Source: a virus
Length of the DNA stretch: 64,000 bases
Virus record (IMG/VR): IMGVR_UViG_3300018430_001101
Coordinates: 1 to 64,000 of that record
Strand: one strand, 5' to 3'
The position numbers and the translations under genes are program-made. The notes beneath the pieces are model-generated. The model ran no database searches, was not told where the DNA came from, and saw only the letters and a list, made by a program, of their open reading frames with translations. This document shows positions 4,766 through 52,450 of the stretch, piece by piece (positions within the stretch are counted from its first letter, which is position 1; each line of letters opens with the position of its first letter).

Positions 4766-7486
4766 TCAGAACACATACAGCCCGCGTTCGTCGTACACGC
4801 TGCCCTGCTGTTCGTGCCTGACGCACCGGTCGAGGGCCATGATTGCGGCGACCACGCCGTCGATCTTTCCATTGCTGCGCTTCTTTGTGGGCTTTATATT
4901 GCCCGCCGGATCAACATCGATGACAACATTGCCACACATCCATCTGAATACCGGGTTTCCCCCATGCAGGATGTTTCCCTTCATCATCTGCTCATAGAAC
5001 TCTTTGGATGGCGCACTCATGCTGGAATAGCCCTGTCCGAAAGGGACGACAGTCATTCCCATCTCAGTCAGCCGCTCTACAAGCATGTTGGATCCCCACC
5101 TGTCAAACGCGATCTCGCAGATGTGGTACGACTGCGACATCTCCCCGATTGCCTTCTCGATATAGGCATAGTCGATAACGTTGCCCGGAGTGGAGTCCAG
5201 ATACCCCCTTGCCTTCCAGGCATCATACGGATACCCTGTCTGCCTGACCCTCCGGGGGATCGTTTCCTCCGGCACCCAGAACCGGAATAGGAGGATGTAT
5301 TTCTCGTTTTCCGTCCTGGGTGGGAACATCAGCGCCATTGCTGTAATGTCCTCTGAACTTGACAGGTCCAGGCCAGCGTAACAATCCCTCCCATAAAGCG
5401 AGGGCATGTCGATTGGCTCATCCCCTTTCGCCACAATGGAATCCGGGATCCACGCAACAGAACTCCCGACCCATTGGTTCAGCCGCAGCCATCTGAAAGT
5501 GACTTCATCAGCTGGATTCTGCAGGGCTTCATTAAAGGCATCACGCATGCGGTCGATCTTGACGGTGTATCCAAGCGACGGGTTGACTTTGTACCAGTTG
5601 CGCTCATCAGTCCAGTCCTCGTCCATGTCGAGGCTGTAGACCACCGGGTAAAATGACGGGTCAGACCTTTTACCGGCAAGTATGTCCTTCGCCTTGGTGT
5701 GCAGCTCATAACCTATTGAATCCCGGTTATTCCCCGCTGTCGTTATGATGAATGCCAGCGGGTTGCGGCGGGCATCGGACGCCCCTTTCGTCAGGACGTC
5801 GTATAATTCCCTGTTGGGCAAGGCGTGTATTTCATCAAAGACAAGCCCTGATACATTCAGCCCGTGCTTTGTGTTGTGCGTAATAAGCCCGTCCGTGCAG
5901 TGCGTCTGGAACCTCTCCATTTCAAATGAGATGGTCTTCCTCATTCCTGCCGGTTCCGCTTTCCAGACCTTGTCTGACTCGGACGCCCGCTGCAGGCATC
6001 TGATTTCCCGTCCGGCAAGCTTTTCCAGCCTTCTGCGCTTTGATGGCTGCACCATGTATGGGGATAGTGCCTCCCACAGTTTTCTCAGCTGGGGAATTCC
6101 GGACACTGTCACCTTGAATTCTGACCTTGTCGAAGCATTGATCCCAAGGCGGGCCAGGAGCACCCGAACCTGTTCTATCGCATCCGCGCTGACAGAGCAG
6201 ATGAACGCCTGCCCTTTCCCTTTCGGATCCTGTTTCGTAACGCACCCGTCCGTATCCATGTATCCGGCGAGGAATGCGGACCACGCCTCGCGCCCTCCCC
6301 GCAGCACTGCGTCAGGAACTGTTTTTGTATAGCATTTGGAATCCTGGCCGAAGTGCTCCCTGATCCATTCCCGCCCAGGGCTCTTCCGCCTTTTTCCAAC
6401 GCCCATCACAAGATGCTCGACTGGATCCTGGTACAGGTCCTTCCCCTCCTGCTTCTGCCTCGTTGAGTAAACGGATTTCATGCCGCTTCCGATGCTTTCG
6501 AAGAAATGGGAGAGCTTGTCAATTACTTCCCTGTCCGGATTGATGAACCTGAAATGCGTGCAGTCCCCGTCTCCCATCCACGCGCCGAGCGCCCACGCTT
6601 CCAGAGGGCTGATGACGTCTTCCGGCGGCTTCCACCCTGTAGGCCAGCCAAGGCTGACGGCAAGGCGGTCATTCACATGCAGGAAGGATGCCTGCTCCCA
6701 GTCGTACACATGCGTCAGATCCTGCATCCGCCTCCCTGGCTCCATACGGTAGAAGGGATGGTTTGCGGAAACCGTGGTCTTCCTGCCGTGATGGGTCGTT
6801 ATCTCTATGGTTTCAGACGGTTCCTCTTCCCTGGCTGAAATGATTCTGTCAAATACCGGGGCAAGGCCGTCAAAAGAAAGAACCACGTCCCCTGGTTTCA
6901 CTTCATCGGCCCTTCGGAGCGTCCCGTCCTCCATCTGCATAAGGGTCTCCGGCGTGACGCACCCCACCTCTGCGGACAGCACCTGGTAGAACCCGGCATT
7001 GCTGTAGTTCACGAGCCTCTTTGTTGCCGCCATGATCTTCGAGCGTTTAAGCAGCGCAGGGTTCAGTTCCACCATCCGCTTCGCAGTGTCAAACACGATG
7101 GACGCCTGGGACCGGTCTGAGGCCGCGCCGTACACTTCGGCAGAAGGCTCATTATCTGCGTACAGGAGGTACAGCGCGATGGCTGCAGCAAGCTCCGACT
7201 TCCCGACCTTCTTACATATCTCCACAAATGCCGTGCGGAACTGCCTTGTACCGTCCTCTTTCACGACGCCTATGACATCCCTGACCAGCCTTTCCTGCCA
7301 CGGGAGGAGCCAGAACCGCTTCCCGGCCCACTCCCCTTTTGTATGGCAGAGCATCTCTATGAACTTCACTGCCCTGTCGGCTTTCTCTTTGTCATAATGC
7401 GACGTCGGGAGCATGAACCGTGTCGGCTCATAGTTCTCCAGTTTTGGGTATCCCTCCGGCCTCGTTTCCGGCTGCCTTCCTGCCAT
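4766..7486 (-). CDS. terL: Terminase large subunit, interrupted by a LAGLIDADG intein
   Basis: Walker A-like KKVGKSEL, then intein, then Walker B LVFDEIHAL; C-terminal nuclease domain; adjacent to P27-type small subunit and portal. Confidence 0.9.
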   Translation of the reverse strand: MAGRQPETRPEGYPKLENYEPTRFMLPTSHYDKEKADRAVKFIEMLCHTKGEWAGKRFWLLPWQERLVRDVIGVVKEDGTRQFRTAFVEICKKVGKSELAAAIALYLLYADNEPSAEVYGAASDRSQASIVFDTAKRMVELNPALLKRSKIMAATKRLVNYSNAGFYQVLSAEVGCVTPETLMQMEDGTLRRADEVKPGDVVLSFDGLAPVFDRIISAREEEPSETIEITTHHGRKTTVSANHPFYRMEPGRRMQDLTHVYDWEQASFLHVNDRLAVSLGWPTGWKPPEDVISPLEAWALGAWMGDGDCTHFRFINPDREVIDKLSHFFESIGSGMKSVYSTRQKQEGKDLYQDPVEHLVMGVGKRRKSPGREWIREHFGQDSKCYTKTVPDAVLRGGREAWSAFLAGYMDTDGCVTKQDPKGKGQAFICSVSADAIEQVRVLLARLGINASTRSEFKVTVSGIPQLRKLWEALSPYMVQPSKRRRLEKLAGREIRCLQRASESDKVWKAEPAGMRKTISFEMERFQTHCTDGLITHNTKHGLNVSGLVFDEIHALPNRELYDVLTKGASDARRNPLAFIITTAGNNRDSIGYELHTKAKDILAGKRSDPSFYPVVYSLDMDEDWTDERNWYKVNPSLGYTVKIDRMRDAFNEALQNPADEVTFRWLRLNQWVGSSVAWIPDSIVAKGDEPIDMPSLYGRDCYAGLDLSSSEDITAMALMFPPRTENEKYILLFRFWVPEETIPRRVRQTGYPYDAWKARGYLDSTPGNVIDYAYIEKAIGEMSQSYHICEIAFDRWGSNMLVERLTEMGMTVVPFGQGYSSMSAPSKEFYEQMMKGNILHGGNPVFRWMCGNVVIDVDPAGNIKPTKKRSNGKIDGVVAAIMALDRCVRHEQQGSVYDERGLYVF
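5873..6961 (-). mobile_element. Intein (363 aa) in TerL with LAGLIDADG homing-endonuclease motifs
   Basis: Starts with Cys directly after FYQVLSAEVG (CVTPETLMQMEDG..., codon 6959-6961 verified); ends ...GLITHN followed by Thr +1 (Asn codon 5873-5875 verified). Two LAGLIDADG motifs (AWALGAWMGDGDC, AFLAGYMDTDGCV). Inserted between Walker A and Walker B of the ATPase. Confidence 0.8.
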
Positions 7487-18798: not shown

Positions 18799-21700
18799 TC
18801 AGACGGCACCTTTTCCCGCTGCCCAGGCGATCCCTGAAAGCACGAAATAAACTATAGGCAAAGAAATCCCGTTGCCCCATAACTTGTACTCGGCGGCATC
18901 CGTGTGGGGATCGGCGAGCCATTTGCGGAGCTGCTTCTCCGTCTTCGGCTTCTTCCCGTTCATGGCGTTCCACGCGTCCCACACTCCCTTCCAGAACGCC
19001 ATTTCCTCCGGCGACGGATCCGGGTCTGCAAGGCCCGCGCACCACCAGTCCGGGAAGCCCTGGAGCCTCGCGCATTCGACCGGGGTGAGCCTGCGGACGA
19101 TGTACATGGGCTCCTCGTTCGGCATGTCGTTCAGGATCGGCGGGTCCTTGTAGTCCGTCGCCACAAGGGTGTTCGCCTGCTCCTTCGCGGGGTGCATGAA
19201 GAAGGAATTCTTGGATGTTGAGTAATGGCTGGCATCCTCCAGGGGTGCCGCCACGCAGTGCCGGTCCGCGGTATTGAGGGTGAACGCGACTTCCTCGTTG
19301 ATGCCGCTTCCCTGCGGGCCGTTCTTTTCCTTCCTCCCAACCATGGAACCCTGCAGCGAATAGGCAGGTTCCGCGGATTCAGCCGGTTCCACAGGCTCCA
19401 CAGGCGCGACGATGCAGATGCCCCCCTGGTTGCAGCAGGGATTACCTCCGCCCTGGTCAAGGGTCCGGCTCGTCTCCGCCTCGTAGAATCCTGCCTTCGG
19501 GTTGTCCGAAAGCATGGAGTGGGAACTCTTGCTGCACACGCCGAATGCCACCGGCTGGAACAGCGTCTGGTCATTGTGGGTGCCAAGTGTAGCAGATTTA
19601 TTGACCTGCCGGATCGGGCCTTTCCCTCCTCCGGGGCAGCCTCCACGGATCTTAAGGGTCACAGGCTCCGGCTCTGCCACAAGCGGCTGCGTGTTCCCGC
19701 CGGTTCCGTAGCGTGCAGTGACCGTGGGGCTGTCCTCCAGGGGGCCGTCATAGCGGCAGTCCTGCGGATGGTTGTCAAAGAGCATTGCCGCCGGGACTAC
19801 GCCCGCCCTCAGCGTAGGGGAGACTTCTTCCCCGTAGCCGATGCTCCGCGCCTTCGCGCTGTGTTCCGTGGAAAAGCCCGCTGCCTGGAGTACCTGTTCA
19901 CCGGATCCTTCAGCCAAAGCGTCGGGCGGAACCGCCGCAGGATGCAGGACGGCAGGGTGGTTGCCGTGGTCCTGCGCGACCAGGGTGCCCGCATGCCCCT
20001 CCGTGACGGTGATCCCGCTGCTCCCCTGGGGGTTCACGCACACTTCGGTCACACGGGATCCGCCTCCTGAACCGCCTGCGCTTACTCCACTTCCAGCGTC
20101 AGGCCGCCCGCCTGCCTCTCCAGCGCCTTTTTCAGCACCTCCGGCAGCTCCTTCCCACGCGCGGAAGCCCTGCGGAGTATACCCAGACACGCCTTCGGAC
20201 TCAAATAGTACTTCCGGGGCACTTCCTCCAGCAAAATCTGCGACAAGGTAGATCCTTGCGCGGCGCTGGGGGCAGGACCAGTATTGAGTGTCGAGAGTCC
20301 TGTAAGCCACGCTCCATCCGTCTCCCAGGTATACGTCCGCTTTAGGCCATCTGTAATTCTCAGGCGGAGGCACCTCGGCTCCTTCCTCCCTGACGCCGAT
20401 GACGGCTTCGAGGACGGCCTTGAAGTCCCTTCCCCCATTGGAGGAGAGGGCCCCAGTAACGTTTTCCCACACGCAGTATCTTGGGTATCTGCCATTTGTC
20501 GCCTCCCTCATTTCCCTGATGATCCGGATCGCCTCGAAGAACAGGTTTGACCTCTGTCCTTCATGGATGCCGGCCCGTTTGCCTGCTATGGAAAGATCCT
20601 GACAATTGTGCACTGTGATCCCGTCTGCAATATAGCTGTTATCCTCTTCTACTGTCAGGTTGTACACAAGCTTCGTATGATGTGTCGGGATCACTTTTCT
20701 CACCCGATACCATCCGTGCAGGTCGTCGGTAAGGTGGACCCGCTTCCCATTCCGTGTGATTTTTACTTCATAGCAGTCGTTCTGGTTGACCAGCCGTCCT
20801 TCTATTACCCCGGTTTTTCTGACATTATAGAGATAGACAGTTGTCGAATACCCCTGCACTTCCGCAAGAAGCCGGATGCTCTCGGCAAGCTTTTTGCTGA
20901 CCGTGCTGATCCTCCATGTTGTCTCTTTGCCCTTTACCTTGGACCCGTCAGAATCAATTAAACCGTTTAACAATGCCTGCCTGTATCCTTCCTGCATGCC
21001 GAAAACCCATCCCGGCATGGTTTTGCCGATTGCGTAACGACCGAAGTTATCCGTAAGCCATCCGCTCAGCACCTGGGAAACAAAAGAAAAACGCACGACA
21101 CCTCTGTCATGCGCAACGCAATATCTATCTGATATTTTCCCGACTATGCTTTTCAGTTCGTCTTCCTTATCTTCGGAATCACAGATGAAAACCTTCCCGT
21201 AAGTTTCTCCTTCCGGCCTGTTGCTTCTCTGTCCATTACATACCCACCCATCCCCGAGCCAGCGTCCCACAAAATAGAAGAAGTCTTCAGACAACGTCGG
21301 CATAGCCTTCTGCCTCCATGATCCTGAATACACTGGTGACGCAATCGGAAGACCCTCTACGGCATTGGGGACTCCCCAAAAACCACCTTCCATTTCTCCT
21401 GCAGGTATCCAGTTCCTCTCATCTGTCAGAATCAGTTGGTTTCCTCTTTTCCCGTTTCCAAGAGATGGGTAGTATTTTTTTACTCCGCAAGAATATATAG
21501 GATGGTTTGGCGTGCACTCCAAGCCATAGTGATTGCCTTTCAGTATCACGGTCTCTCCAGGCTTTGCGCCTGACGCAGTAACCTTCTTCCATCTGCCCTT
21601 ATGTGTGAGAACCTTTGTTCCGACTCCTATCTTCTCTATTGGAACATATCCCTCTTCTGTCAGCACCAGCGTCCCTGCCGGGAAGCAAGGCGAGCCAAAT

Positions 21701-21915
21701 GTTATGATGTCCACAGGCTCCAGTTCGGATCCTTTGAGCTTCGAAACATCCCCATAGTGCTTCACCTGCGGCAGCCGCCTGTGGGTGACCAGGATTGGGA
21801 ACGGCTCGATCTCGCTGGAAAAAACCGGCCTAATCCCGGCAAGGATGCCGCCTAAAGGAAAACCCCCGGAGCCGTCAAACAGGCTGCCGAGGGTCAGTGT
21901 TTTCTTTTCTGCCAT
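18799..21915 (-). CDS. DNA (cytosine-5)-methyltransferase with long variable region, interrupted by a LAGLIDADG intein
   Basis: Motif I LFDGSGG, motif IV split as GSP|intein|CQDLSIAGKRAG, ENV motif YCVWENV, C-terminal RRLTPVECARLQGFPDWW and GNGISLPIV. Confidence 0.9.
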   Translation of the reverse strand: MAEKKTLTLGSLFDGSGGFPLGGILAGIRPVFSSEIEPFPILVTHRRLPQVKHYGDVSKLKGSELEPVDIITFGSPCFPAGTLVLTEEGYVPIEKIGVGTKVLTHKGRWKKVTASGAKPGETVILKGNHYGLECTPNHPIYSCGVKKYYPSLGNGKRGNQLILTDERNWIPAGEMEGGFWGVPNAVEGLPIASPVYSGSWRQKAMPTLSEDFFYFVGRWLGDGWVCNGQRSNRPEGETYGKVFICDSEDKEDELKSIVGKISDRYCVAHDRGVVRFSFVSQVLSGWLTDNFGRYAIGKTMPGWVFGMQEGYRQALLNGLIDSDGSKVKGKETTWRISTVSKKLAESIRLLAEVQGYSTTVYLYNVRKTGVIEGRLVNQNDCYEVKITRNGKRVHLTDDLHGWYRVRKVIPTHHTKLVYNLTVEEDNSYIADGITVHNCQDLSIAGKRAGIHEGQRSNLFFEAIRIIREMREATNGRYPRYCVWENVTGALSSNGGRDFKAVLEAVIGVREEGAEVPPPENYRWPKADVYLGDGWSVAYRTLDTQYWSCPQRRARIYLVADFAGGSAPEVLFESEGVSGYTPQGFRAWEGAAGGAEKGAGEAGGRPDAGSGVSAGGSGGGSRVTEVCVNPQGSSGITVTEGHAGTLVAQDHGNHPAVLHPAAVPPDALAEGSGEQVLQAAGFSTEHSAKARSIGYGEEVSPTLRAGVVPAAMLFDNHPQDCRYDGPLEDSPTVTARYGTGGNTQPLVAEPEPVTLKIRGGCPGGGKGPIRQVNKSATLGTHNDQTLFQPVAFGVCSKSSHSMLSDNPKAGFYEAETSRTLDQGGGNPCCNQGGICIVAPVEPVEPAESAEPAYSLQGSMVGRKEKNGPQGSGINEEVAFTLNTADRHCVAAPLEDASHYSTSKNSFFMHPAKEQANTLVATDYKDPPILNDMPNEEPMYIVRRLTPVECARLQGFPDWWCAGLADPDPSPEEMAFWKGVWDAWNAMNGKKPKTEKQLRKWLADPHTDAAEYKLWGNGISLPIVYFVLSGIAWAAGKGAV
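20605..21687 (-). mobile_element. Intein (361 aa) in C5-MTase with LAGLIDADG motifs
   Basis: Begins CFPAGTLVLTEEG after ITFGSP; ends GITVHN followed by Cys that is the catalytic Cys of PCQ motif (junction verified at 20605-20607 = AAT Asn, then TGT). LAGLIDADG motifs FVGRWLGDGW and LLNGLIDSDGS. Confidence 0.8.
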
Positions 21916-24966: not shown

Positions 24967-25318
24967 CCATCTCCTCCTTTGGCTGTCCATCATCCAGCGG
25001 GTGTGCTTCCCGCAGTTCCATTGCCCGGGCGCGGTTTTTCACCCGTTCCCACTGCATCCTTCGGAGCGTCCGTTCAGGAAGGCGCTTCTTCCTGTGCCTT
25101 TCGGCAAGCAGGGACTGCGCCCGGATCCTCCTGCGCAGTTCAGGATCCGTCACGGAAACAACATGCCTCCGGCCGCAGTAAGGGCAGGCGAAGTATGTGT
25201 ATTCCAGGGCGTCCTCCCTGAGCACCTCAGGCTCCGGCTCAAATGCGCACCCGCAGCCGTCACATCTCACGTTTCTGGCATTCCTGGCATCCCCGACATT
25301 ACCGCCATCCATCTTCAT
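24953..25318 (-). CDS. Zinc-ribbon protein (hypothetical)
   Basis: CDGCGC...CPYCG pairs; start chosen at internal ATG. Confidence 0.4.
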   Translation of the reverse strand: MKMDGGNVGDARNARNVRCDGCGCAFEPEPEVLREDALEYTYFACPYCGRRHVVSVTDPELRRRIRAQSLLAERHRKKRLPERTLRRMQWERVKNRARAMELREAHPLDDGQPKEEMDGSN

Positions 25319-26322: not shown

Positions 26323-26377
26323 TTGAACCTCCTCTGCCCGGTTTCTATCCTGTGTTCCACTCCCGTCCGGCATCCGC

Positions 26378-26614
26378 CTAACAGATCCCTGCATTGCTTA
26401 ACACCTGCAAGGGCGGTACCCGGAGAGAAATACCGGGATCTGTCCCATATATCCCAGGGGATTCAGGAACCAGTGAAACATAGTCCGCAGTAATCCCGTA
26501 TTTCAGGAGGATATAAAGCAGTACTGCTACGCATGCGGCCAATATGATCAGCGCAAATATTGAAATGCCAGTGAGGACACAGCATTCTGCTTCGAAGGCA
26601 GCTGCCGGACTCAT
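26378..26614 (-). CDS. Small membrane protein (one TM; holin-like candidate)
   Basis: ISIFALIILAACVAVLLYILL hydrophobic helix. Confidence 0.35.
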   Translation of the reverse strand: MSPAAAFEAECCVLTGISIFALIILAACVAVLLYILLKYGITADYVSLVPESPGIYGTDPGISLRVPPLQVLSNAGIC

Positions 26615-26704
26615 TTTCCAAGTCCTTTCGCCCGTCCTTATGATTGATCCCCTGCTTCTGCACATGCCGCACCTCCTTCACATCCGCCCTTCTGCTGATG
26701 ATCT

Positions 26705-32417: not shown

Positions 32418-35400
32418 TCATCCGGACTGCCCCTTGATATATCCCGCGATCATTCCGATTCCTTCGTACACCTTTGTGCTTTTGTACACCTGTGTTCCTC
32501 CGCCGGAAACCGTACCGCAATCCGTAGATGAAGCCGGGACTTCCACGACCAGGGCGGGTGCCTGCATGATGCCAAGGCTGTCCGCATACATCATGCCGGG
32601 ATCCGTGTCAGCAAAAATGACGCGGTACCTTATCCCCGCTTTGTCCAGCATCTTCTTTGCGGCCTTGCAGTTCGGGCATGTCCTGGTTGCGACGAGCACG
32701 GCTTTCTTCTGGTTCTCCGGGTAGTCCTTATCAGCCGGGATTCCGGCATCCCCGTTTTCCACAGTGGCGTGTCTGTCCGTAGCGGTGTGTCTGTCCACAG
32801 TGGAATTCCCAGCCACTGTTTCGGTCTCAGTCAGGTCTTCCAGGCTGACTTCTCCCCTGACCCTGACCTTAGCCATTACCTTGCCCTTCACCGTCCCCGT
32901 GACAGGCCCATCCAGCCTGTCTTCCGCATAGGTGACGCGCTCCCTGAACTCGGATGCCTTGCCGTCGTTCCAGTTACGGAGCGGCCGGTAGTATCCGGTG
33001 ATCCGGGAGTAGACTTCCGCTTCCCTGCCGCATTCCGGGCAGGTGAAATGCTTCCCGGGTATGTAGCCGTGGATCTCGCATACCGAATATGTCGGCGTCA
33101 GCGTGTAATACGGCAGGCGGAAGTTCTCGGCGATCTTGCGCACCAGGTCGCGCGCGGCCTTCCAGTCCCTCAGCTCCTGCCCGAGGAATCCGTGGAACAC
33201 GGTGCCGGAGGTGTAGAGGACCTGCATGTCGTCCTCCAGCTCCAGCGCGTCAAAGATGTCGTCGGTAAAACCGACCGGAAGGTGGGTGCTGTTCGTGTAG
33301 AACGGTGCTCCTCCATTCTTCTCCGCCGTGATGATGTCCGGGAATTCCTCCACGTCATGCTTCGCGAAGCGGTACGTCGTGGACTCGGCAGGCGTCGCCT
33401 CAAGGTTGTAAAGGTCCCCGTACTGCTCCTGATAGTCGGACAGGCGGTTCCTCATATGGTTCAGGACGTCCAGAGCGAACTGGTGTCCTTCCTTCCCCGT
33501 GATGTCCCCGTCCAGCCAGGTGGCATTCTCGATTGCCTCGTTCATGCCCACGATGCCGATGGTGGAGAAGTGGTTCTCGAAGGAGCCGAGGTACCGCTTC
33601 GTGTACGGGTAGAGGCCGCCTTCCATGAGGCCGGTGATGGTCCTGCGCTTGATCTTGAGCGACCTCGCCGCAAGGTCCATGTAGTGGTCGAGCATCACAT
33701 AGAAGTCTTCCTCGGAGCCTGACAGGTATGCCAGGCGCGGCAGGTTCAGGGTGACCACGCCGACGGAGCCGGTGCTTTCACCGGAGCCGAAGAAGCCGCC
33801 GCCCTTTTTACGCAGCTCGCGCAAGTCGAGGCGGAGGCGGCAGTTGTGGGTGACCAGCCCGCAGGGAAGGGTGAAGTAAGGCTCGCTGTCATCGAGCACT
33901 TCAAAGCAGTATCCGATATGGGAGCCATTTTCCACTTCGGAAATGCTCTGGATCCGGAACCACATGTAGCCGTCTTCTTTCACATACACGTCGCCATAGG
34001 ACTTCTGCCCGTTGTCAACGCTGTATGGCCTGATGGAGTATACAGGATTGTCAGAAAGTGTAGTGGTGCTGTCCCTGTCATCCATTGAAATCCTGGAAGG
34101 GATGCCCATCGACATCAGCATGGCCGCCATGGATTCCACAGCCTTCTTTGATGCCGAGTAGATCCTGTTCTTCGTCCCGCCGTCGGTCCTCCTGTATCCG
34201 TCCAGGATCCCTTCCCGGAATGCCAGGGATTTCCCGATGCACTTGGGGTTCAGTTCCTTGCTGAGGGCCTTGCCTGAGACGTATTCCTCGATCAGCCCCC
34301 TCAGCATCCGCGAGTACACGGTCACGTTGACGCAGTGGTTTTTCAGGTCATTGATTGCCACTTTGCCGCCATACCTCCCCTCAGCCAGCTTGATGATGTC
34401 TGCCATCAGGCCCGCCTTCGATGTACGGTTCAGGGAGAATGTAATTCCGTTAGCTTCCCGCAGGCTTCCATCACCCATGAACGCGCCAACCATCAGGCCA
34501 TCGTCATAGCTAAGCCCGGAACCGTCAAAGGGAACGACGTTGAAGGGAAGGTAATCGCCCGCCGTAAGCTCGTCTGTCCGCTTAATATCATTTCCCAAAA
34601 CAAGGTTTGCGTGGGAAGCGGACAGGACAACTTCATGCCCGTTCACAGTCCTGATCCTGTAAAACCTCTGGTTATCGTACCGATGGATCCTCGCCCTTTT
34701 CGTTTCCCCGTTCAGGATGACCTCATAAGTCTTTTCCCGCCTTCCGTTCCTCTCGCATGCCTTATACAGCGATTCGATGGGGCTGATGTGGAATTCACGT
34801 GCGTAGTCATCCCTGACAAGGACCTTCTCCTTCCCATGGAGCGGGCACATGGCCCTCACATCGGACGGCTTCATGTCGGAGCTGACGTAGTTGGAGTAAT
34901 ACGGCGTGCCGTACTTCGCCGTCATCTCGAACAGGAGCCTGTTGTTTTCCGTATCGCTCCAGTCGAAGTCGTTCGTGATGGAGTAGGTAGGGATCGGGTA
35001 CTGGAAGCCCCGCCCGTTGGCGTCCCCTTCGAGCATAATCTCGATGAACGCCTTATTGACCATGTCCATTTCCTTCTTGCAGTCGCCGTAGGTGAAATCC
35101 ATCTCCTTTCCGCCCACGATGGCGGGGAGGTCTTTCATGTCAGGCGGGCATGTCCAATCCAGCGTCACATTGGTAAACGGGGCCTGGCACTGTCCGGAGA
35201 TAAAAACCTCCCCGTCCGCGCTTCTGAAAACTGCCGTCCCGTTGTCGTCGTTCGGGCACCATACAATGCCCTTGTAGGGGATTTCGGTTCTCGTTGAGGG
35301 CTGGACGTTTTCTGTCTTGCGGATTTTTACGTAATTCGCTTTCCTGGTATGGTGCTTGAAAGAGGTATACCCGGCACGGAGGGCGATATGCTGGAGCGCG

Positions 35401-37013
35401 TCAGCGATATCGTCGTTGTCGTACTGCAGCATGAATTTCTCATCCCTCCCATCGTATCTTGACCAGGCGGCAAGGAATACCTCCGAGCAGTCCGCGCTCA
35501 TCCTCGTAAACTTCGGATGGATGCTCTTTTTCGTTGTACCCACAAGCTCGACGATCGCCCTTGCGCTGTCCCCGTAGAAACTGTACTTGTTCACAGGGCT
35601 TCCGAAGCCGCCAGTGAGTTCCTTCCTGGTGTACTTAAAGCCAAGGATGCCGGAAAGCTCCTCGATTTCTTCATTGCCTTCCCTGTTCGGGGACTTGTAA
35701 ATGCAGACTTTATGCACGCTCCCGCCTCTCATGTCGATACTGCCGTCGGTATATACAATTGCGGCGAAGGCAGCTTCTGCCTCCGTGATGCCCTTTTCCC
35801 TGGCGGTAATGCTGCTGCCATGGAACCTGACAGGAAGGTAATACGGCGTCTTCACGCCGAATATGTCCTCCGAACGGCGGATAACGTACTGGTCAAGGTT
35901 ATGCTTTTTGCAAAGCACCCTGTGGTCCGGGGTAACCGTCTGGCTGTATCCGCGCGCCCTGTACTGATGCAGCACTCCGTTATGTTCCTTTACAACGATC
36001 TCGTTAAGGGGGCACAGCTCAAGGGCGCCATTTTTCCAGGTGTAGATATTCTCCCCCTTCTTAAGGTCGTTGTAATGCTTCCAGCCTTCCTCGGTCAGGA
36101 TTTCAGTTGACGGCGGTACGCACCCCCATCTCGAAGGCGTGTTGACGCCGTAGATGAAGGACTGGATGCACTGCTTCACCTCCTGGTATGTCAGGTGGTC
36201 CGCCCTGACGAACGGGGCGAGGTAAGTGTCGAAGGACGAGAACGCCTGCGCCCCTGCCCACTCGTTCTGGAGGATCCCCAGGAAGTTGACCATCTGGTTG
36301 CAGAGCGTCGACAGGTGCTTTGCCGGGGCGGACGAGATCTTCCCGGGCACGCCGCCAAGCCCCTCCTGGATCAGCTGTTTCAGGCTCCATCCCGCGCAGT
36401 ACGGAGTCAGCATCGACAGGTCGTGCAGGTGGAGGAAGCACTGCCTGTGCGCCTGGGCGATGTCCTCGTCATAGACCTCGGACAGCCAGTAATTCGCCGT
36501 GACCGCCCCTGAGTTCGACAGGATCAGGCCGCCGACGCTCAGAGTGACGGTGGAGTTCTCCTTCACGCGCCAGTCCTTGTTCGCCCCTGTGTACCCCTCG
36601 ATCAGCTTTTTGTAGTCAAGGAGCGTCTTCTTCGCCTGCCGGGTCTTCCCATGCTGGCTGCGGTAGAGGATGTATGCCTTTGCCGTCTCCGGGTATCCCG
36701 ACTTCATCAGGGCCGCCTCGACCCTGTCCTGGATCTCTTCCACAGTGGGGATGGATTCCCGGCTTCCCCTATCAGTTCCTCCTGCAGGCATAGTGTCCAC
36801 AGTGGTTGTATCCGCATCGGGACCTGCAGTACCGTTGCCGCTTCCCTGCATCCCGCTGAGGAGCAGGATCACGATGGCTTCGGAGACGCCCTCCACATGT
36901 TCCGCATCGACCTCTCCCGATGCCCTGAATGCTTTTGCGACGGCATTCTCGATCTTCGACCTGTCAAAGTCCACGACCCTTCCGTCGCGCTTTTTTATCT
37001 TCCTGATGTCCAT
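32418..37013 (-). CDS. nrdD: Anaerobic ribonucleoside-triphosphate reductase (class III, NrdD) with ATP-cone, two LAGLIDADG inteins and C-terminal glutaredoxin/NrdH-like domain
   Basis: ATP-cone MDIRKIKKRDGRVVDFDRSKIENAVAKAF; NrdD core (GVNTPSRWG, CRLRLDLREL); zinc ribbon CEIHGY...CPECG; glycyl-radical motif RITGYYRPL; C-terminal CPNC redoxin domain. ORF-track 5' extension overlaps HNH gene, so start placed at ATG 37013. Confidence 0.85.
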   Translation of the reverse strand: MDIRKIKKRDGRVVDFDRSKIENAVAKAFRASGEVDAEHVEGVSEAIVILLLSGMQGSGNGTAGPDADTTTVDTMPAGGTDRGSRESIPTVEEIQDRVEAALMKSGYPETAKAYILYRSQHGKTRQAKKTLLDYKKLIEGYTGANKDWRVKENSTVTLSVGGLILSNSGAVTANYWLSEVYDEDIAQAHRQCFLHLHDLSMLTPYCAGWSLKQLIQEGLGGVPGKISSAPAKHLSTLCNQMVNFLGILQNEWAGAQAFSSFDTYLAPFVRADHLTYQEVKQCIQSFIYGVNTPSRWGCVPPSTEILTEEGWKHYNDLKKGENIYTWKNGALELCPLNEIVVKEHNGVLHQYRARGYSQTVTPDHRVLCKKHNLDQYVIRRSEDIFGVKTPYYLPVRFHGSSITAREKGITEAEAAFAAIVYTDGSIDMRGGSVHKVCIYKSPNREGNEEIEELSGILGFKYTRKELTGGFGSPVNKYSFYGDSARAIVELVGTTKKSIHPKFTRMSADCSEVFLAAWSRYDGRDEKFMLQYDNDDIADALQHIALRAGYTSFKHHTRKANYVKIRKTENVQPSTRTEIPYKGIVWCPNDDNGTAVFRSADGEVFISGQCQAPFTNVTLDWTCPPDMKDLPAIVGGKEMDFTYGDCKKEMDMVNKAFIEIMLEGDANGRGFQYPIPTYSITNDFDWSDTENNRLLFEMTAKYGTPYYSNYVSSDMKPSDVRAMCPLHGKEKVLVRDDYAREFHISPIESLYKACERNGRREKTYEVILNGETKRARIHRYDNQRFYRIRTVNGHEVVLSASHANLVLGNDIKRTDELTAGDYLPFNVVPFDGSGLSYDDGLMVGAFMGDGSLREANGITFSLNRTSKAGLMADIIKLAEGRYGGKVAINDLKNHCVNVTVYSRMLRGLIEEYVSGKALSKELNPKCIGKSLAFREGILDGYRRTDGGTKNRIYSASKKAVESMAAMLMSMGIPSRISMDDRDSTTTLSDNPVYSIRPYSVDNGQKSYGDVYVKEDGYMWFRIQSISEVENGSHIGYCFEVLDDSEPYFTLPCGLVTHNCRLRLDLRELRKKGGGFFGSGESTGSVGVVTLNLPRLAYLSGSEEDFYVMLDHYMDLAARSLKIKRRTITGLMEGGLYPYTKRYLGSFENHFSTIGIVGMNEAIENATWLDGDITGKEGHQFALDVLNHMRNRLSDYQEQYGDLYNLEATPAESTTYRFAKHDVEEFPDIITAEKNGGAPFYTNSTHLPVGFTDDIFDALELEDDMQVLYTSGTVFHGFLGQELRDWKAARDLVRKIAENFRLPYYTLTPTYSVCEIHGYIPGKHFTCPECGREAEVYSRITGYYRPLRNWNDGKASEFRERVTYAEDRLDGPVTGTVKGKVMAKVRVRGEVSLEDLTETETVAGNSTVDRHTATDRHATVENGDAGIPADKDYPENQKKAVLVATRTCPNCKAAKKMLDKAGIRYRVIFADTDPGMMYADSLGIMQAPALVVEVPASSTDCGTVSGGGTQVYKSTKVYEGIGMIAGYIKGQSG
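32421..32730 (-). other. Glutaredoxin/NrdH-like domain (CPNC active site) fused to C-terminus of NrdD
   Basis: KKAVLVATRTCPNCKAAKKMLDKAGIRYRVI...MQAPALVV after the glycyl-radical motif. Confidence 0.6.
33843..34847 (-). mobile_element. Intein 2 of NrdD (335 aa, LAGLIDADG)
   Basis: Begins CPLHGKEKVLV after DVRAM; ends CGLVTHN followed by CRLRLDL (Asn codon 33843-33845 verified). Motifs LMVGAFMGDGS and EGILDGYRRTDGG. Confidence 0.8.
35190..36122 (-). mobile_element. Intein 1 of NrdD (about 311 aa, LAGLIDADG), atypical C-terminal ...SGQ
   Basis: Begins CVPPSTEILTEEG after NTPSRWG; LAGLIDADG-like AAIVYTDGSID and LAAWSRYDGRD; host sequence resumes CQAPFTNVTLDW. No HN at C-terminus, so boundary approximate. 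Confidence 0.55.
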
Positions 37014-37183
37014 ATCTTCGTCTCCGTTTCTCACTCTGTCCCGCTTCTCCTGCTGCATTTCGCCCGTCCTGCTTCTCCTGCCGCGTTCCATCTGTCCCGC
37101 TTCTTCTGACCGAATCGGATCCGCTCTCACCGCTGCCACGTCGTCGGGATGCAGGTCGCAGGATGCAGGACGCAGCTGGGCCG

Positions 37184-37543
37184 TCAGTACCTGTACACGG
37201 GGTGCATGTCCTGCGCCCCCGTCTTCATGCTGTGGTGGGAATGGCAGAGCGCCTGCCAGTTGCCCTCGTCCCAGAAAAGCTCCGGGTCTCCGCGGTGCGG
37301 CACGATGTGGTCCACGTCGGTCGCCTTCACGTACTGTCCCTGCCGATAGCACTCCACGCACAGCGGATGGGCTTCAAGGTACCGCTTCCTGGCTTTCTGC
37401 CAGCGGCTCCCATAACCCCGCTTAGATGCAGAGCGGTTCTCTTCCGGGTGCAACTGCTTATGTTTCTCACAGTATCTCGTCCCAGCATCTACCAGTTCCG
37501 GGCATCCCTGATGGCGGCAGGGCACTCTCGGTTTCGTAGGCAT
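37184..37543 (-). CDS. HNH endonuclease
   Basis: CxxC pairs plus DVDHIVPHRGDPELFWDEGNWQALCHSHH (HNH motif). Confidence 0.8.
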   Translation of the reverse strand: MPTKPRVPCRHQGCPELVDAGTRYCEKHKQLHPEENRSASKRGYGSRWQKARKRYLEAHPLCVECYRQGQYVKATDVDHIVPHRGDPELFWDEGNWQALCHSHHSMKTGAQDMHPVYRY

Positions 37544-42388: not shown

Positions 42389-43111
42389 CTACCGTTCCTG
42401 GGTTTCATCTGTACCTGCATCATTGGAACCGGGGGAAACGTGAGAACCTGCACACCCTGCATACCCTGCGTATCCCGCATACCCCGGATCGCAGATATCG
42501 GCTGGAACCTGGGTGATGGGAACCGGGTCGAAGGGAGCCGGCGTGGAAAACTCCAGATGCCCGGCTACGGCTTCCTCGATTTCCCGGAGCTTCAGCCCGT
42601 CCGTGATGCGGCCCATGTCGCTCACGAGGGCCTGGGGGCTGATCGTCGTGATCTGCTCCGCCATGGTCAGGCCCGGTTTGAACGTCCTGCCCTCGCCCCG
42701 GCCGGTGAGGTCGGCTTCCGTGACCGGCACGTGCGTCGGGAGGTAGTACCTCTTGTGCTTCGTTGTCATCGGCACCACCGTCGCGACTTCGCGCTTCATG
42801 TTCGCTTCCTCATTGGACAGCACCACGACCGGCCTGCAGCCTTCCTCCACGCACGTCCCGGGGTGGAGCCCCAGCTGCGCGAACCAGACATCGCCCCTGT
42901 GGATCTCCCTTGCCGGGAACCTGCGGATCCTGCAGCGCCCTGCCACAATTGTGTCGGGGAGTGCGGTCGGCACCTCCTGATGTCCGGGATAGAAGGTTGT
43001 GTTCCGATGGCCGCTGTGCGCTTTGCCACTGTGCCTGCCGTGGTTGTTTCTACGGTTGCTGCGCTTCCTGGGATTTCTGTTGATCCTGTTATGATGTTCA
43101 AGTCTTCTCAT
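42389..43111 (-). CDS. MazF/PemK-fold endoribonuclease-like protein with basic N-terminal and Gly/Tyr/Ala-rich C-terminal extensions
   Basis: Core IHRGDVWFAQLG...RPVVVLSNEEANMKREVATVVPMTT...LTMAEQITTI matches PemK/MazF pattern; ATG 43111 after AGGAGAG SD. Confidence 0.65.
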   Translation of the reverse strand: MRRLEHHNRINRNPRKRSNRRNNHGRHSGKAHSGHRNTTFYPGHQEVPTALPDTIVAGRCRIRRFPAREIHRGDVWFAQLGLHPGTCVEEGCRPVVVLSNEEANMKREVATVVPMTTKHKRYYLPTHVPVTEADLTGRGEGRTFKPGLTMAEQITTISPQALVSDMGRITDGLKLREIEEAVAGHLEFSTPAPFDPVPITQVPADICDPGYAGYAGYAGCAGSHVSPGSNDAGTDETQER

Positions 43112-43442
43112 CTTCAATCTCTCCTGTGCATATCTGCTGCTCTGTATCCTCCTGCCCCGGCGTCTCAGCTCCTGTCCATCCCGGCATTCCCCCATCCACT
43201 TCACCAGCGGAAGTTAAAGAGGACGCCAGGGCATAAAAAATGCCGGGAGCGGCTTTGGCACCGCCCTCGGCAAATGGAAAAGGAGACTAAGCTATGGACT
43301 TCATCTTTGTGCGTTCCTGCGGAAGCTTTCGTTTGTGTTTCTGTGTTTGTCTTCCGCTTTCGCGCATTGTAATAATAGCACATTTTTTACTACGCTTTTT
43401 GAGCCGAAAAGTATCATCGAAACTGCCAAAAAGTATCATTTC

Positions 43443-49491: not shown

Positions 49492-49551
49492 GCTGTCACA
49501 GCAAGTCCCGCCACAGAGTATGGTGAGAAGAGCGGAGTGCGGAGAGCGTGA

Positions 49552-49905: not shown

Positions 49906-50038
49906 CTCCTGTTTTCTCCGCTGCTATACTACTGTGCTCCTCTGCCGAGCATCAACTCCGGCACTGTCATCACTGCTGTCGTCCGTCCCGGCGCATAAAT
50001 ATACGCCTTTTATGCATATGCACAGCCACGCCGGCACC

Positions 50039-52450
50039 TCAGTCTTTGAAATAGTACTTGGGTGCCAGGTAGCCTGCGGCGGCCAATGGCAGCCCCTCTG
50101 CCCATGCCGGATTCTGGCTCATGATCTCGCATACCTCGTCCACCGTGATGCTCCCCACAGGCACTTCGAGGATCACCTCGTCATGCACGTGGGCGACGAT
50201 GGGAAGGCCCGCCTGCTCCATCCTCCACATGGCTTCCGCAAGGATGTCGCGGGCGATTGCCTGCGTTGCATTTTCAACCAACTTCCCAGAGTACGTCTCT
50301 AAACGATCCCACTTGTTCGCCGCATTTACGCCCATGTACGTCAGGCTCATGCGCCCGAACTTGTTAGGCTCCTTCTTGGGAACCATATAAGCAAGGCCCC
50401 TGCCCGACGGCAGTTTCATCCACAGGACTCCCCTGTCCTTTCGGAAGCTGATGCGCCCCACCCGATGCTCCTCTTTATCACCGAGTGCCTGTAGTGCCGC
50501 CCTCTCTACGCCCCACCAGTATTGGACGATATTCGGGTTGGCGCTCCGCCAGTCATCGATCAGCCCCTGCAGCTCTTCTTCCTTCACGCCCATGTCCAAT
50601 GCGCCCATGGATTTCAACGCGCCAACGGATCCGCCGTAACCGCACGCGAGTTCTGCGACCTTCCCACGTTGTCTTAACTCCCCGTTCACTCCGTGCTTGA
50701 CCACGGGCACCCCGAACATCTGCGACGCTGAAGCGCAGTAGATGTCCTCGCCGTTCACGAACGCTTCCAGCCTCCACTGCTCCCCGGCTTCCCAGGCAAG
50801 GACTCTGGCCTCGATGGCGCTGAAATCCGCCACGATGAACTCGCATCCCGGCTTCGGAACCAGCATCGTCCGACACAGCTGTGAGAGGATGTCCGGCGCA
50901 TTCCCGTAGATGGTTTCGACCATCTCGATCTCGCCCATCTTCACTAATTCTCTTGCTTCATCGAGGGTGTTGATCTCGTTCCTTACGAGATTTTGTAATT
51001 GAATATTCCTGCCTGAATTTGAAACGACTCGCCCATTTGCCATGAAACGGTTATGCGGTCCCGCGTTGATGATGTCATACGTCCTCATTTTCTCGTGGTC
51101 ATCTTCCGCAGCTCCTTCTACAGCACCGTCCGCAGTGACTGCTGCCTGGATTCCACCGTGGATGACATTCCCACGCCAGATCCTGCGCCTCATTCTTTTT
51201 GCGTCAACCAGTGTGATTTCTGTACTCTCGTCCACATACACCATGTGGTCTTCGGTAGCCGTGATTCCGTCCCAGGTGATTACATCTTTTTCACCGCTGT
51301 AGAACACGCCTTCGTGGTGCACCCACTCGCAGCCGTCGTACACGGCGTCCGACAGCAGCACATCCTCGATTGGTTTCTCATAGATCGCTCCTTCCGCTGT
51401 CCTGACGAGAACCGGAGTACCCTCTGCAAGACACCACCGCTGTGTCCTGTTCGCCCCGGAGAACTGGAACAGGCCTCTTGCTCTTCCGTCTTTGCATGTG
51501 CATCGCTCCGCCGCCTGGTATTTCTTAACGCTGCTCTTCGCCATCTGTAGTCTCAGCTTCAGCATCTCCAGGGCCTCGGAATCCAGAGATCCCTTCTCCA
51601 GGTTCCGGATCATCGCCGCTACGTCCTTCTTTCCGAGCGTGCCTATCTCTACGCCCCGCTCGTTCAGCCAGGACTTGAGCTGGGACACTGAATTCGGGTT
51701 CTCCAATCCCGTTAATTCGTATGCCCTTTTTGTCATGGCATCGGAAAGCAACAGGTCGCATTCGATGGCCTTCTCCACAAGCTCTGTGTCGATCATGACT
51801 CCCCGGTCATTGATCCGCTGGTCCATGTGGTAAAAGTTCCACTCTGCATCGACCAGAGGGAACCGCTCTATCTTCTTCCTGATATCACGTTCCGTCCTGA
51901 CGTCCTGCCGGCAGTATTCCTTGAACTTCGCCCAGCCTTCCGGGTCATGCTCCGGCAGGTTCCGCGTCCTGCCCCCGTTCGCCTTCGTGGGCTTGCAGGG
52001 GACAGAAAAGTACCGGATCAAAGCTTCGCCTGCCTTGTCCTTCTGCTCTCCTGTCTTCAGCACCGCCGCAGCGTTCTTGAGGGCGAGAGGAAGGGACAGG
52101 GACGCCGCGTGGGCCATCGTGCAGAACCATGAATCCGGTTCCAGCTTCCTGCCAAGGTACTGCGACAGGCATGTCCGCTCGAACTGCGCGTTCCATGCGG
52201 CTTTTTTAACGCCCGGGTCATCCAAGGCATCAAGCACGGGCTGCGGAATCGGCTCACCGCAGGCCATGTCCACGATCTGCACTTCCTCGTCGTCAAACGC
52301 ATAGGCGAGCATCAGGATGTGGAAGTCTCCTTCAACGTAGCGGAACACACCGCATTTCGTCAGGTCGACGTCAGAATACGTTTCCAAGTCCAAGGATAGT
52401 ACGCTGCAATTATCGTCCCCCGCCATATCTTCACCTCCATCATCTTCCAT
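50039..52450 (-). CDS. Family-A DNA polymerase (3'-5' exonuclease + polymerase) interrupted by a mini-intein
   Basis: Exo I LSLDLETYS; polymerase motif A DFSAIEARVLA; motif C HVHDEVILE; O-helix-region RTQRW|intein|SGRNIQLQNL. Confidence 0.9.
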   Translation of the reverse strand: MEDDGGEDMAGDDNCSVLSLDLETYSDVDLTKCGVFRYVEGDFHILMLAYAFDDEEVQIVDMACGEPIPQPVLDALDDPGVKKAAWNAQFERTCLSQYLGRKLEPDSWFCTMAHAASLSLPLALKNAAAVLKTGEQKDKAGEALIRYFSVPCKPTKANGGRTRNLPEHDPEGWAKFKEYCRQDVRTERDIRKKIERFPLVDAEWNFYHMDQRINDRGVMIDTELVEKAIECDLLLSDAMTKRAYELTGLENPNSVSQLKSWLNERGVEIGTLGKKDVAAMIRNLEKGSLDSEALEMLKLRLQMAKSSVKKYQAAERCTCKDGRARGLFQFSGANRTQRWCLAEGTPVLVRTAEGAIYEKPIEDVLLSDAVYDGCEWVHHEGVFYSGEKDVITWDGITATEDHMVYVDESTEITLVDAKRMRRRIWRGNVIHGGIQAAVTADGAVEGAAEDDHEKMRTYDIINAGPHNRFMANGRVVSNSGRNIQLQNLVRNEINTLDEARELVKMGEIEMVETIYGNAPDILSQLCRTMLVPKPGCEFIVADFSAIEARVLAWEAGEQWRLEAFVNGEDIYCASASQMFGVPVVKHGVNGELRQRGKVAELACGYGGSVGALKSMGALDMGVKEEELQGLIDDWRSANPNIVQYWWGVERAALQALGDKEEHRVGRISFRKDRGVLWMKLPSGRGLAYMVPKKEPNKFGRMSLTYMGVNAANKWDRLETYSGKLVENATQAIARDILAEAMWRMEQAGLPIVAHVHDEVILEVPVGSITVDEVCEIMSQNPAWAEGLPLAAAGYLAPKYYFKD
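51017..51433 (-). mobile_element. Mini-intein (139 aa, no endonuclease domain) in PolA
   Basis: Begins CLAEGTPVLVRTAEG; ends ANGRVVSN followed by Ser (Asn codon 51017-51019 verified). Confidence 0.75.

Follow-up and report, generated by a model that had tools for sequence, protein, structure and literature searches.

Five inteins, among them a proline-initiated class 3-type candidate, in four genes of a Heliusvirales-type human-gut phage

The DNA analyzed here comprises 64,000 nucleotides (nt) of the IMG/VR virus record IMGVR_UViG_3300018430_001101 (positions 1 to 64,000 of that record; this whole stretch is referred to as the window). Four of its minus-strand genes, encoding the large terminase subunit TerL, a C5 cytosine DNA methyltransferase (MTase), the class III (anaerobic) ribonucleotide reductase (RNR) NrdD, and a family A DNA polymerase (PolA), carry five in-frame inserts, two of which lie in nrdD (NrdD-1 and NrdD-2). 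All five inserts are inteins. According to our reading, to which we assign a probability of roughly 0.85, five mobile inteins have inserted themselves into conserved motifs, spread over four genes of a Heliusvirales-type phage, and would be expected to excise themselves from the precursor proteins. The most interesting elements are the family of NrdD-2, which is of class 3 type, starts with Pro, lacks the class 3 Trp, and is followed by Cys, the family of the PolA intein, which occupies two sites, and relatives of the PolA intein that are apparently split.

The four interrupted open reading frames (ORFs) are much longer than their homologues (4766-7486 for TerL, 18799-21915 for the MTase, 32418-37361 for NrdD, and 50039-52450 for PolA). 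When each precursor was searched by tblastn against 50,697 phage records, the best matches covered extein parts only, split in two or three pieces, and pairwise alignments revealed that every insert is missing to the exact residue from close intein-free homologues. Insert lengths are 363 amino acids (aa) in TerL, 361 aa in the MTase, 311 and 334 aa in NrdD, and 139 aa in PolA, adding up to 1508 codons or about 7% of the window. Each insert is followed by a nucleophilic residue at position +1, i.e., Thr in TerL, Cys in the MTase, Cys at both NrdD sites, and Ser in PolA. The TerL, MTase, and NrdD-2 inserts matched intein and LAGLIDADG profiles from Pfam and NCBIfam, several of them below curated cut-offs; the endonuclease matches were to LAGLIDADG_3 or Hom_end and were weak for NrdD-2. 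A hidden Markov model (HMM) of the NrdD-2 family, built from 150 relatives, also matched the MTase (3e-21), TerL (8e-11), and NrdD-1 (0.016) inteins and no other ORF of the window.

No sixth intein was detected among six-frame ORFs of at least 50 aa when these were queried with the family profile of NrdD-2 and each of the five inteins, and neither the primase-helicase, portal, and SNF2 helicase ORFs nor the other large ones gave a Hint signal. Searches of the window for Rfam families, including group I and II introns, and for tRNAs returned nothing. Taken together, the exact gaps, the lack of a sixth intein, and the lack of an Rfam intron bear out the count of five inteins in four genes within 48 kb, which an earlier note on this DNA, made from the sequence alone, had proposed. 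The division into four inteins with paired LAGLIDADG motifs and one mini-intein likewise stood: the motifs, with their acidic residues retained, could be read directly in all four large inserts, and the PolA insert is only 139 aa long. The DUF2800/PD-(D/E)XK nuclease gene (54011-55471, minus strand) was considered as a further intein carrier and rejected, its extra segment of about 90 aa being an acidic low-complexity linker.

For all five inserts, profile, fold, or homology evidence supports intein identity. That they are instead other domains, for example in-frame endonuclease domains retained in the mature protein, is hardly credible. The PolA insert could be taken that way, as it has no direct Hint profile match; however, the inserts split invariant catalytic motifs (P/CQ, MC/CRL, and SAEVG/TKHG, the slash marking the junction), contain intein terminal blocks, and are without exception followed by Cys, Ser, or Thr, and a structural model of NrdD-1 has solved inteins, not free endonucleases, as its top matches.

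Ends of the class 1 type, i.e., Cys or Ser at position 1 and a terminal Asn, were found in the TerL, MTase, and PolA inteins only, as NrdD-1 ends in Gln and NrdD-2 starts with Pro. The earlier claim of canonical Cys/Ser N-termini and (Thr-)His-Asn C-termini throughout thus fails for three of the five, namely NrdD-1 (ISGQ/C), PolA (VVSN/S), and NrdD-2 (Pro1). The GC content at third codon positions was lower in inteins than in the respective exteins by gene-specific amounts (0.53 vs. 0.71 in the MTase, 0.59 vs. 0.73 in PolA, 0.70 and 0.71 vs. 0.81 in NrdD, and 0.68 vs. 0.70 in TerL), which fits separate acquisitions at different times.

The terminase gene contains the following features:

4766 to 7486, minus strand: terL precursor gene, 906 aa, 543 aa when spliced, with Pfam TerL_ATPase and TerL_nuclease domains
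5873 to 6961, minus strand: TerL intein, 363 aa, from Cys1 to Thr-His-Asn, with Thr at +1 and a LAGLIDADG domain
6563 to 6589 and 6245 to 6271, minus strand: LAGLIDADG motifs of the TerL intein

Compared to the intein-free TerL of phage NatCom_20922, the insert forms an exact gap at SAEVG/TKHG. It matched LAGLIDADG_3 with an E-value of 4e-12, as well as Hint (6.6e-5) and TIGR01445 (2e-4), the latter two under curated cut-offs. Once spliced, the protein can be aligned over its full length with HK97 TerL (PDB 6Z6D; E 3e-63), with no break at the junction. As proposed before, the insertion lies downstream of Walker A (aa 92-98) and upstream of Walker B (aa 547-552). An identical 906-aa precursor is present on seven metagenome contigs from at least three different samples, which argues against an assembly artefact. 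The nearest relative is the TerL intein of Corynebacterium phage P1201, which is 30.5% identical over the whole intein and ends similarly (LVTHN/T). However, the P1201 intein sits in the Walker A P-loop (GSAK/T), whereas that of the window sits 8 residues upstream of the Walker B strand. Remoter relatives occur in genes annotated as mycobacteriophage portal proteins. Members in the P1201 P-loop and in portal genes imply that this intein family has changed sites and hosts.

For the methyltransferase gene, the features are:

18799 to 21915, minus strand: C5 cytosine DNA methyltransferase precursor gene, 1038 aa, 677 aa when spliced, Pfam DNA_methylase (E 2e-28)
20605 to 21687, minus strand: MTase intein, 361 aa, from Cys1 to Val-His-Asn, with the catalytic Cys of motif IV (PCQ) at +1
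21244 to 21270 and 20944 to 20970, minus strand: LAGLIDADG motifs of the MTase intein

The exteins are 64% identical to XTK82899 of NatCom_11578, and an exact gap relative to a homologue (L005) places the insert within FGSP/CQD. The insertion directly ahead of the catalytic Cys, between Pro and Cys of GSP/CQD, had been recognized correctly. Profile matches comprised Hom_end (3.7e-7), Hint_2 (5.9e-7), and TIGR01443 (3.4e-7). A homologous intein occupies the identical GSP/CQD site in the C5-methylase gp50 of Propionibacterium phage B22 (33% identity over intein and flanks), which belongs to another phage lineage and has a shorter methylase; C5-methylase inteins are also listed among those of actinobacteriophages. 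At 677 aa, the spliced methylase is unusually long. The part encoded at 18799-20600 (minus strand) contains Gly/Ala/Ser-rich low-complexity stretches and a large region between motifs VIII and X, an architecture common to Heliusvirales homologues.

The two NrdD inteins depart from the class 1 pattern. The features of this gene are:

32418 to 37058, minus strand: nrdD precursor gene, 1546 aa, 901 aa when spliced, with ATP-cone, NrdD, and C-terminal glutaredoxin/NrdH-like domain
35190 to 36122, minus strand: NrdD intein 1 (NrdD-1), 311 aa, from Cys1 to Ser-Gly-Gln, with Cys at +1 and Cys at position 4 of block F (F:4)
35739 to 35765 and 35448 to 35474, minus strand: LAGLIDADG motifs of NrdD-1
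33843 to 34844, minus strand: NrdD intein 2 (NrdD-2), 334 aa, from Pro1 to Thr-His-Asn (Asn334), with Cys at +1
within NrdD-2, key residues His78 (B:10), Asn80 (B:12), Cys313 (F:4, codon within 33897 to 33911), and Thr332 (G:5)
34464 to 34490 and 34179 to 34205, minus strand: LAGLIDADG motifs of NrdD-2
34845 to 34847, minus strand: codon of Cys(-1), the N-extein residue before NrdD-2

The ATG at 37058 is the likely start of nrdD, although the ORF remains open for about 300 nt further upstream to a GTG at 37361. The protein matched Pfam NRDD (E 2e-171), ATP-cone, and Glutaredoxin, and is 66% identical to an intein-free homologue on MT835493. Relative to that homologue, the ATP-cone (36750-36860, minus strand) contains a Gly/Thr/Asp-rich insertion of about 30 aa. 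The C-terminal glutaredoxin/NrdH-like domain (32418-32900, minus strand), which has a CPNC motif at 32664-32687, matches NrdH structures in the PDB, and is common to relatives, suggests a built-in thiol reductant for the class III reductase.

NrdD-1 was found at the NTPSRWG site named in the earlier note, as alignment with the intein-free gene gave an exact gap at TPSRWG/(T,C)QAPF, and the spliced protein aligns to Thermotoga maritima NrdD (PDB 4COI) across this first junction. Its predicted His-Asn end, by contrast, was not found. The last residues are VFISGQ, with Gly in place of the penultimate His, and this Gly-Gln end is kept across the family: in an alignment, ten sequences including that of the window end in ISGQ/(T,C,S) and one in ISGN, three being mini-inteins without endonuclease. 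A conserved Gln in front of a varying nucleophile argues for a working, albeit non-standard, terminus. Splicing is known for inteins with a terminal Gln, being slow in Pyrococcus abyssi PolII and efficient in the Chilo iridescent virus RNR (PMC4031507). Both share the C-terminal Gln in place of Asn with NrdD-1 but reside at other sites of unrelated hosts, and NrdD-1 adds the penultimate Gly and the F:4 Cys.

By profile, NrdD-1 is weak (TIGR01445 5e-4, below the curated cut-off), and phmmer searches of both NrdD inteins against PDB sequences gave nothing meaningful. An AlphaFold 2 (AF2) model based on 12 metagenomic homologues reached a mean predicted local distance difference test (pLDDT) of 89 and a predicted TM-score (pTM) of 0.89. 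Its best Foldseek matches in the PDB were endonuclease-containing inteins, i.e., TliVMA (7QSU, E 1.6e-14) followed by PhoVMA, PI-SceI, and PI-PfuI, with the free LAGLIDADG enzymes I-DmoI and I-SceI ranking below them. A metagenomic relative of 1608 aa (P0005) bears both NrdD inteins with ends identical in kind, which supports that the double insertion is no assembly artefact.

For NrdD-2, the AM/CRLRLDL region had been identified correctly as the insertion site, but the boundary was one residue off. The Cys that had been taken as the first intein residue is the last residue of the N-extein, and the intein starts with Pro. The gap relative to the intein-free gene falls at SDVR(A,S)MC/CRLRLD. 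Intein-free homologues (L004, P0160, and P0166) have two Cys at this site, SMC/CRLRL(D), and the flanks in the window read AM-C-PLHG ... THN-CRLRL, so that one Cys must remain in the extein; counting it into the intein would cost the finger loop a residue. NrdD-2 is hence wedged between two adjacent finger-loop Cys of an oxygen-sensitive glycyl-radical enzyme. By counting in the alignment, the second Cys of this pair corresponds to T. maritima NrdD Cys330, which we take to be the thiyl-radical Cys.

An ordinary class 1 intein that starts at the Cys (34847 down to 33843) and leaves AM-CRLRL with a single Cys as splice product is highly improbable. Cys is the usual first residue of inteins, the string C...THN/C looks canonical, and 34 related cluster representatives do have Cys1. 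In these relatives, however, the N-junction reads C/C, and the Pro of the window aligns with the second Cys. Moreover, position 2 of the TIGR01445 model aligns with the residue after Pro, and C/P is retained in 47 diverged clusters. NrdD-2 also matched the Intein_splicing profile (4e-6), below the curated cut-off.

An exhaustive HMMER search identified 405 relatives of NrdD-2 (108 at E < 1e-30), nearly all in NrdD and at the same site; an IMG/VR scan with NrdD-2 returned no relative. Two types of N-junction were observed, SMC/PLxGxEKVL and S(M,S)C/CFxGxQKVL. Among 82 representatives of clusters defined at 50% identity in which both junctions aligned, 47 have Cys/Pro and 34 have Cys/Cys. All 47 Pro1 members have Cys at F:4, and the four members with another residue there are all Cys1 (hypergeometric p = 0.028). 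Across the family, Cys at F:4 (138/149), Thr at G:5 (142/148), and the HN/C end (140/145) are strongly conserved, and nearly all members have His at B:10. Position B:12 is occupied by Asn (69), His (23), Gln (21), or Phe (15), and never by Trp. The Cys1 relatives include a mini-intein contig and the NrdD insert CST076 of Clostridium phage c-st, noted as a putative intein (PMC3653736). The latter shares family, site, and B:12 Asn with NrdD-2 (ASC/CFDGQQ ... YVYCFEM ... ITHN/CRL), but with Cys1 it is readable as class 1, whereas the window member has Pro1.

With Pro1, NrdD-2 cannot make the initial acyl shift. It combines the lack of a nucleophile at position 1 with Cys at F:4 (YCFEV) and Thr at G:5 (VTHN), as in class 3 inteins, for which the absence of Cys at position 1 together with F:4 Cys serves as operational definition (PMC7891396). 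The class 3 prototype, the MP-Be DnaB intein, also starts with Pro and splices, using its block F Cys as first nucleophile (PMC2807308), and in a class 3 crystal structure, this Cys is joined by the His of block B and the Thr of block G to form a triad (PMC7664689). By the published sequence definition, NrdD-2 is probably a class 3 intein, with a rare Asn-Cys-Thr triplet and an uncommon Cys+1.

Several observations weigh against this assignment. The B:12 Trp of the Trp-Cys-Thr (WCT) triplet is replaced by Asn (SASHAN), and Cys+1 is rare in class 3 inteins. F:4 Cys is not unique to the class either: it occurs together with Cys1 in NrdD-1, and according to reviews Cys is the second most common residue at this position. 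Furthermore, the presence of Cys+1 makes a direct, class 2-like attack possible. On the other hand, 6.1% of 1701 inteins falling under the operational definition have no Trp, and the Trp-less AceL NrdHF intein (Met-Cys-Thr) is experimentally class 3 (PMC7891396).

The class 2-like scheme would work as in KlbA inteins: Cys+1 would directly attack the amide between Cys(-1) and Pro1, with the block F Cys in no more than an assisting role. We regard this as unlikely, albeit worth weighing, and other routes or a lack of splicing as less likely still. The near-invariant Cys+1 of the family and the missing class 3 Trp would suit the class 2-like scheme, and the +1 residue of class 3 inteins is normally Ser or Thr (PMC2807308). 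Known class 2 inteins, however, have Ala1 and Asp at F:4, whereas the class 3 triad of F:4 Cys, B:10 His, and G:5 Thr (PMC7664689) is conserved here in full. In addition, Pro1 never occurs in the family without F:4 Cys, and the Bvi IcmO intein has been described with a class 3 WCT signature and Cys+1.

The DnaB intein of mycobacteriophage Bethlehem resembles NrdD-2 in Pro1, F:4 Cys, the Thr-His-Asn end, B:10 His, the LAGLIDADG domain, and its location in a phage gene. It differs in B:12 (Trp instead of Asn), in the +1 residue (Thr instead of Cys), and in its host, the DnaB helicase, and no sequence relationship between the two was detectable. The AceL NrdHF intein is likewise class 3 without Trp and interrupts a phage-like RNR gene (PMC7891396), but it is naturally split, has Ala1 and B:12 Met, lacks both assisting His, and resides in a class Ib beta subunit. 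That NrdD-2 stands for a large, so far undescribed class 3-type branch, with at least 47 Pro1 clusters beside Cys1 sisters, an Asn/His/Gln-Cys-Thr triplet, and obligate Cys+1, is a tentative and rather doubtful proposal; a literature search on class 3 inteins and NrdD or anaerobic RNR found nothing relevant, which is no proof that the family is undescribed.

The fifth intein lies in the polymerase gene:

50039 to 52450, minus strand: family A DNA polymerase precursor gene, 803 aa, 664 aa when spliced, Pfam DNA_pol_A
51017 to 51433, minus strand: PolA mini-intein, 139 aa, from Cys1 to Val-Ser-Asn, with Ser at +1
50630 to 50662, minus strand: empty O-helix intein site, KVAELA/CGYGG

The PolA exteins are 59% identical to the polymerase of NatCom_19828, and three homologues show an exact gap at RT(G,Q)RW/(A,S)GR. 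The terminal blocks are recognizable (block A CLAEGTPV, B TATEDH, F TYDIIN, and G RVVSN/S), with a 26-aa Ala/Gly/Asp-rich linker in the position of the endonuclease. The insertion falls between precursor aa 339 and 340 (ANRTQRW/SGRNIQLQNL), with motif A (ADFSAIE) located at aa 541 and the O-helix (RQRGKVAELACGYGG) further on, at aa 593. After splicing, the site is therefore about 60 residues before motif A and about 120 before the O-helix, i.e., in a TxRW/SG motif and not next to the O-helix as previously suggested. This motif resembles TGRLSSxxPNLQNIP of Pol I, of which it may be the counterpart; PolA aligns to Taq and Klenow from motif A onward, and as the HMM alignments begin 35 residues downstream of the insertion, the equivalence to TGRLSS stems from motif resemblance only.

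Some results weigh against the intein identity of this insert: on its own, it had no Pfam, NCBIfam, or PDB-sequence (phmmer) match, and its AF2 model from a 5-sequence alignment reached a pLDDT of 54, for which reason it was kept out of the fold search. A profile of its family had sub-threshold matches in the PDB, all to Hint proteins (among them the split intein of Neq Pol and an intein-like domain from bacteria), and hhalign of this family against that of NrdD-2 gave P = 0.012. Homology points the same way. The mini-intein is 36-49% identical (E 2e-25 to 5e-19) to inteins of related polymerases in Ruminococcus phage NatCom_23091, Streptococcus phage Javan113, and a metagenomic contig, which start with CIAEG and end with VHN/C, and an intein at the same site as in the window was found in metagenomic relatives. 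By its boundaries, motifs, and homology, the PolA insert is assigned as an intein, and penultimate His is often lost in phage inteins that still splice (PMC5050341).

The NatCom_23091 and Javan113 inteins thus belong to the family and host gene of the mini-intein but differ from it in their O-helix site (KVAELA/CGYGG), in the canonical VHN/C end, and, in some cases, in a length of 309 aa with a basic, unrecognizable middle. Two relatives (L001 and L003) bear an intein at this site (AELA/C...VHN/CGYGG). The window has an empty site with Cys in the +1 position of the intein-bearing relatives, whereas the intein-free L002 has Leu, and this Cys may have been left behind by a lost intein or may mark a pre-adapted target. 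In the 309-aa O-helix-site inteins of L003 and L011, the middle 180 aa are rich in Lys, Arg, and Ser and have no recognizable endonuclease motifs, which recalls actinobacteriophage inteins whose endonuclease is encoded in a different frame or on the opposite strand.

In the window, the polymerase ORF runs continuously through the linker, so the mini-intein is contiguous, and the Met before RTYDII is retained. In the metagenomic relatives L011, L017, L018, and L012, the intein at this first site is broken in the linker. In L011 (ENA ERZ27234818 k141_930189, 1-2858), ORF1 ends with KIWRGN..GDAEE and a stop that overlaps, as ATGA, with ORF2, which starts MKTYDILNAGSRNRFMANGRVVSN/SGR. In L017 (ENA ERZ1667816 scaffold_434360), a TGA stop is followed by 72 nt containing GAGGGAG and then by an ATG opening MKTYDILNAGPRNRFMANGRIVSN/SGR; L018 and L012 have another small ORF after the stop. 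This arrangement resembles that of a naturally split intein, here within a family A polymerase, with an N-part of about 90-101 aa and a C-part of 24 aa.

Non-canonical termini raise the question of function. MTase and NrdD are accessory in phages, so that the earlier description of four essential host genes does not extend to these two. NrdD is dispensable for many phages, and a non-splicing NrdD precursor would not necessarily be purged fast, a point that counts against functional inteins throughout. One or more of the inserts could thus be decayed, non-splicing inteins in a host gene, most plausibly nrdD or the methylase, that is a dead passenger. The Gly-Gln and Ser-Asn ends and Pro1 might be seen as signs of decay, and degenerating, intein-laden RNR genes are known from Campylobacter phages (PMC3653736). 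We nevertheless consider this improbable. The precursors are all encoded by long, intact ORFs, the unusual residues are conserved family-wide and are not private mutations, and the exteins, with all motifs intact, are 59-67% identical to intein-free homologues. TerL and PolA are, moreover, required for growth, and absence of the penultimate His often leaves splicing of phage inteins possible (PMC5050341).

Self-excision of all five thus remains our preferred reading, and the following scheme can be proposed. Each precursor would be translated with its intein, which would then excise itself and join the flanks. The TerL, MTase, and PolA inteins would use the class 1 route, in which a Cys1 thioester forms, the acyl group is transferred to Thr, Cys, or Ser at +1, and the terminal Asn cyclizes, with PolA doing so without a penultimate His; NrdD-1 would follow the same route with cyclization of its terminal Gln. 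In NrdD-2, Cys313, aided by His78 and Thr332, most likely attacks the Cys(-1)-Pro1 bond, after which the acyl group would pass to Cys+1 and Asn334 would cyclize (class 3 route), restoring the MC-CRL finger loop. The LAGLIDADG homing endonucleases of the four large inteins presumably spread them to empty alleles during co-infection. The PolA mini-intein would have lost its endonuclease or never had one, and its family also occupies the second site in the same gene.

The intein load had been called exceptionally high. This holds for density, as five inteins in 48 kb are above published phage cases, but not for count. Zeta crAss-like phages contain 'up to 3 inteins per genome' (PMC7886860), and among mycobacteriophages of cluster C1, an actinobacteriophage survey from 2025 reported seven inteins for Cane17, whose genome is about 160 kb, and six each for Blubba and Colt (bioRxiv 10.1101/2025.01.02.630785). 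Like the phage of the window, the latter have many inteins, but their genomes are larger (about 155-160 kb, i.e., about one intein per 23-26 kb), their density is lower, and their hosts are actinobacterial. The density found here is about twice that of the densest published case found. The notion that the lineage is an intein reservoir is weak. Metagenomic relatives carry the NrdD pair (P0005) and the same-site PolA intein, but the nearest relatives in INPHARED have no intein at the TerL site, the MTase site, or either NrdD site, and in them PolA inteins alone recur, at the O-helix site. The load thus looks specific to this genome and a few metagenomic relatives. The description of the Heliusvirales does not mention inteins.

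Regarding its origin, the window most resembles a human-gut phage or prophage of the candidate order Heliusvirales. The closest annotated relatives among the phage records were human-gut 'NatCom' phages (Ca. Heliusvirales) and Streptococcus prophages, and a megablast of terL gave no match at the nucleotide level in INPHARED. The gene content is that of a tailed phage (ClpP-type prohead protease, portal, TerL, and a small terminase-sized ORF), with large genes almost all on the minus strand. Further genes encode a D5/NrS-1-type primase-helicase, an SNF2 helicase, PolA, an Enc34-type ssDNA-binding protein, and the DUF2800 nuclease; two DNA methylases, three SPOR-domain cell-wall enzymes, a SAM synthetase, and NrdD are also present. 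The second methylase (23689-24993, minus strand) has a ParB-N domain fused to an N6/N4 DNA methylase. The SPOR-domain proteins are encoded in succession (25348-29925, minus strand) and comprise a GH114-like hydrolase, a metallo-beta-lactamase-fold protein, and a protein with amidase and tail-lysozyme domains. A 271-aa PemK/MazF toxin-domain protein is encoded between the primase-helicase and helicase genes (42389-43204, minus strand). At 56000-64000, GC content drops from about 0.57 to 0.49, and this region, which probably represents either the end of the phage with lysogeny control or the border of a prophage, holds the single large plus-strand gene, encoding an IrrE/M78 peptidase with several zinc ribbons (61763-63679).

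Every element described here is of a known kind, which applies to the class 1 inteins, the Gln-terminated one, the one of class 3 type, and the LAGLIDADG endonucleases. What stands out is their combination, as a single genome holds five unrelated inteins, three of class 1, one Gln-ended, and one of class 3 type with Pro1 and Cys+1. They are candidates for mutually orthogonal splicing parts from a mesophilic gut phage, and the earlier idea of using them as orthogonal tools appears reasonable. In two of them, the catalytic Cys of the host enzyme itself would serve as the +1 nucleophile. For annotation, NrdD-2 demonstrates that a Cys...HN/Cys string can mislead, since the intein-free allele shifted the boundary by one residue and altered the predicted mechanism. 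The PolA intein family, with two sites in one gene and an apparent split form, offers a compact system for site switching and for the change from contiguous to split inteins. If the class 3-type branch is real, its Cys1 and Pro1 sister lineages would form a natural series for the origin of class 3 from class 1. If the thiols of Cys(-1), Cys313, and Cys+1 make splicing redox-dependent, anoxia would act as a gate on the maturation of the anaerobic reductase encoded by the phage. With this genome, the Heliusvirales, a widespread human-gut lineage, join the groups with intein-dense genomes.

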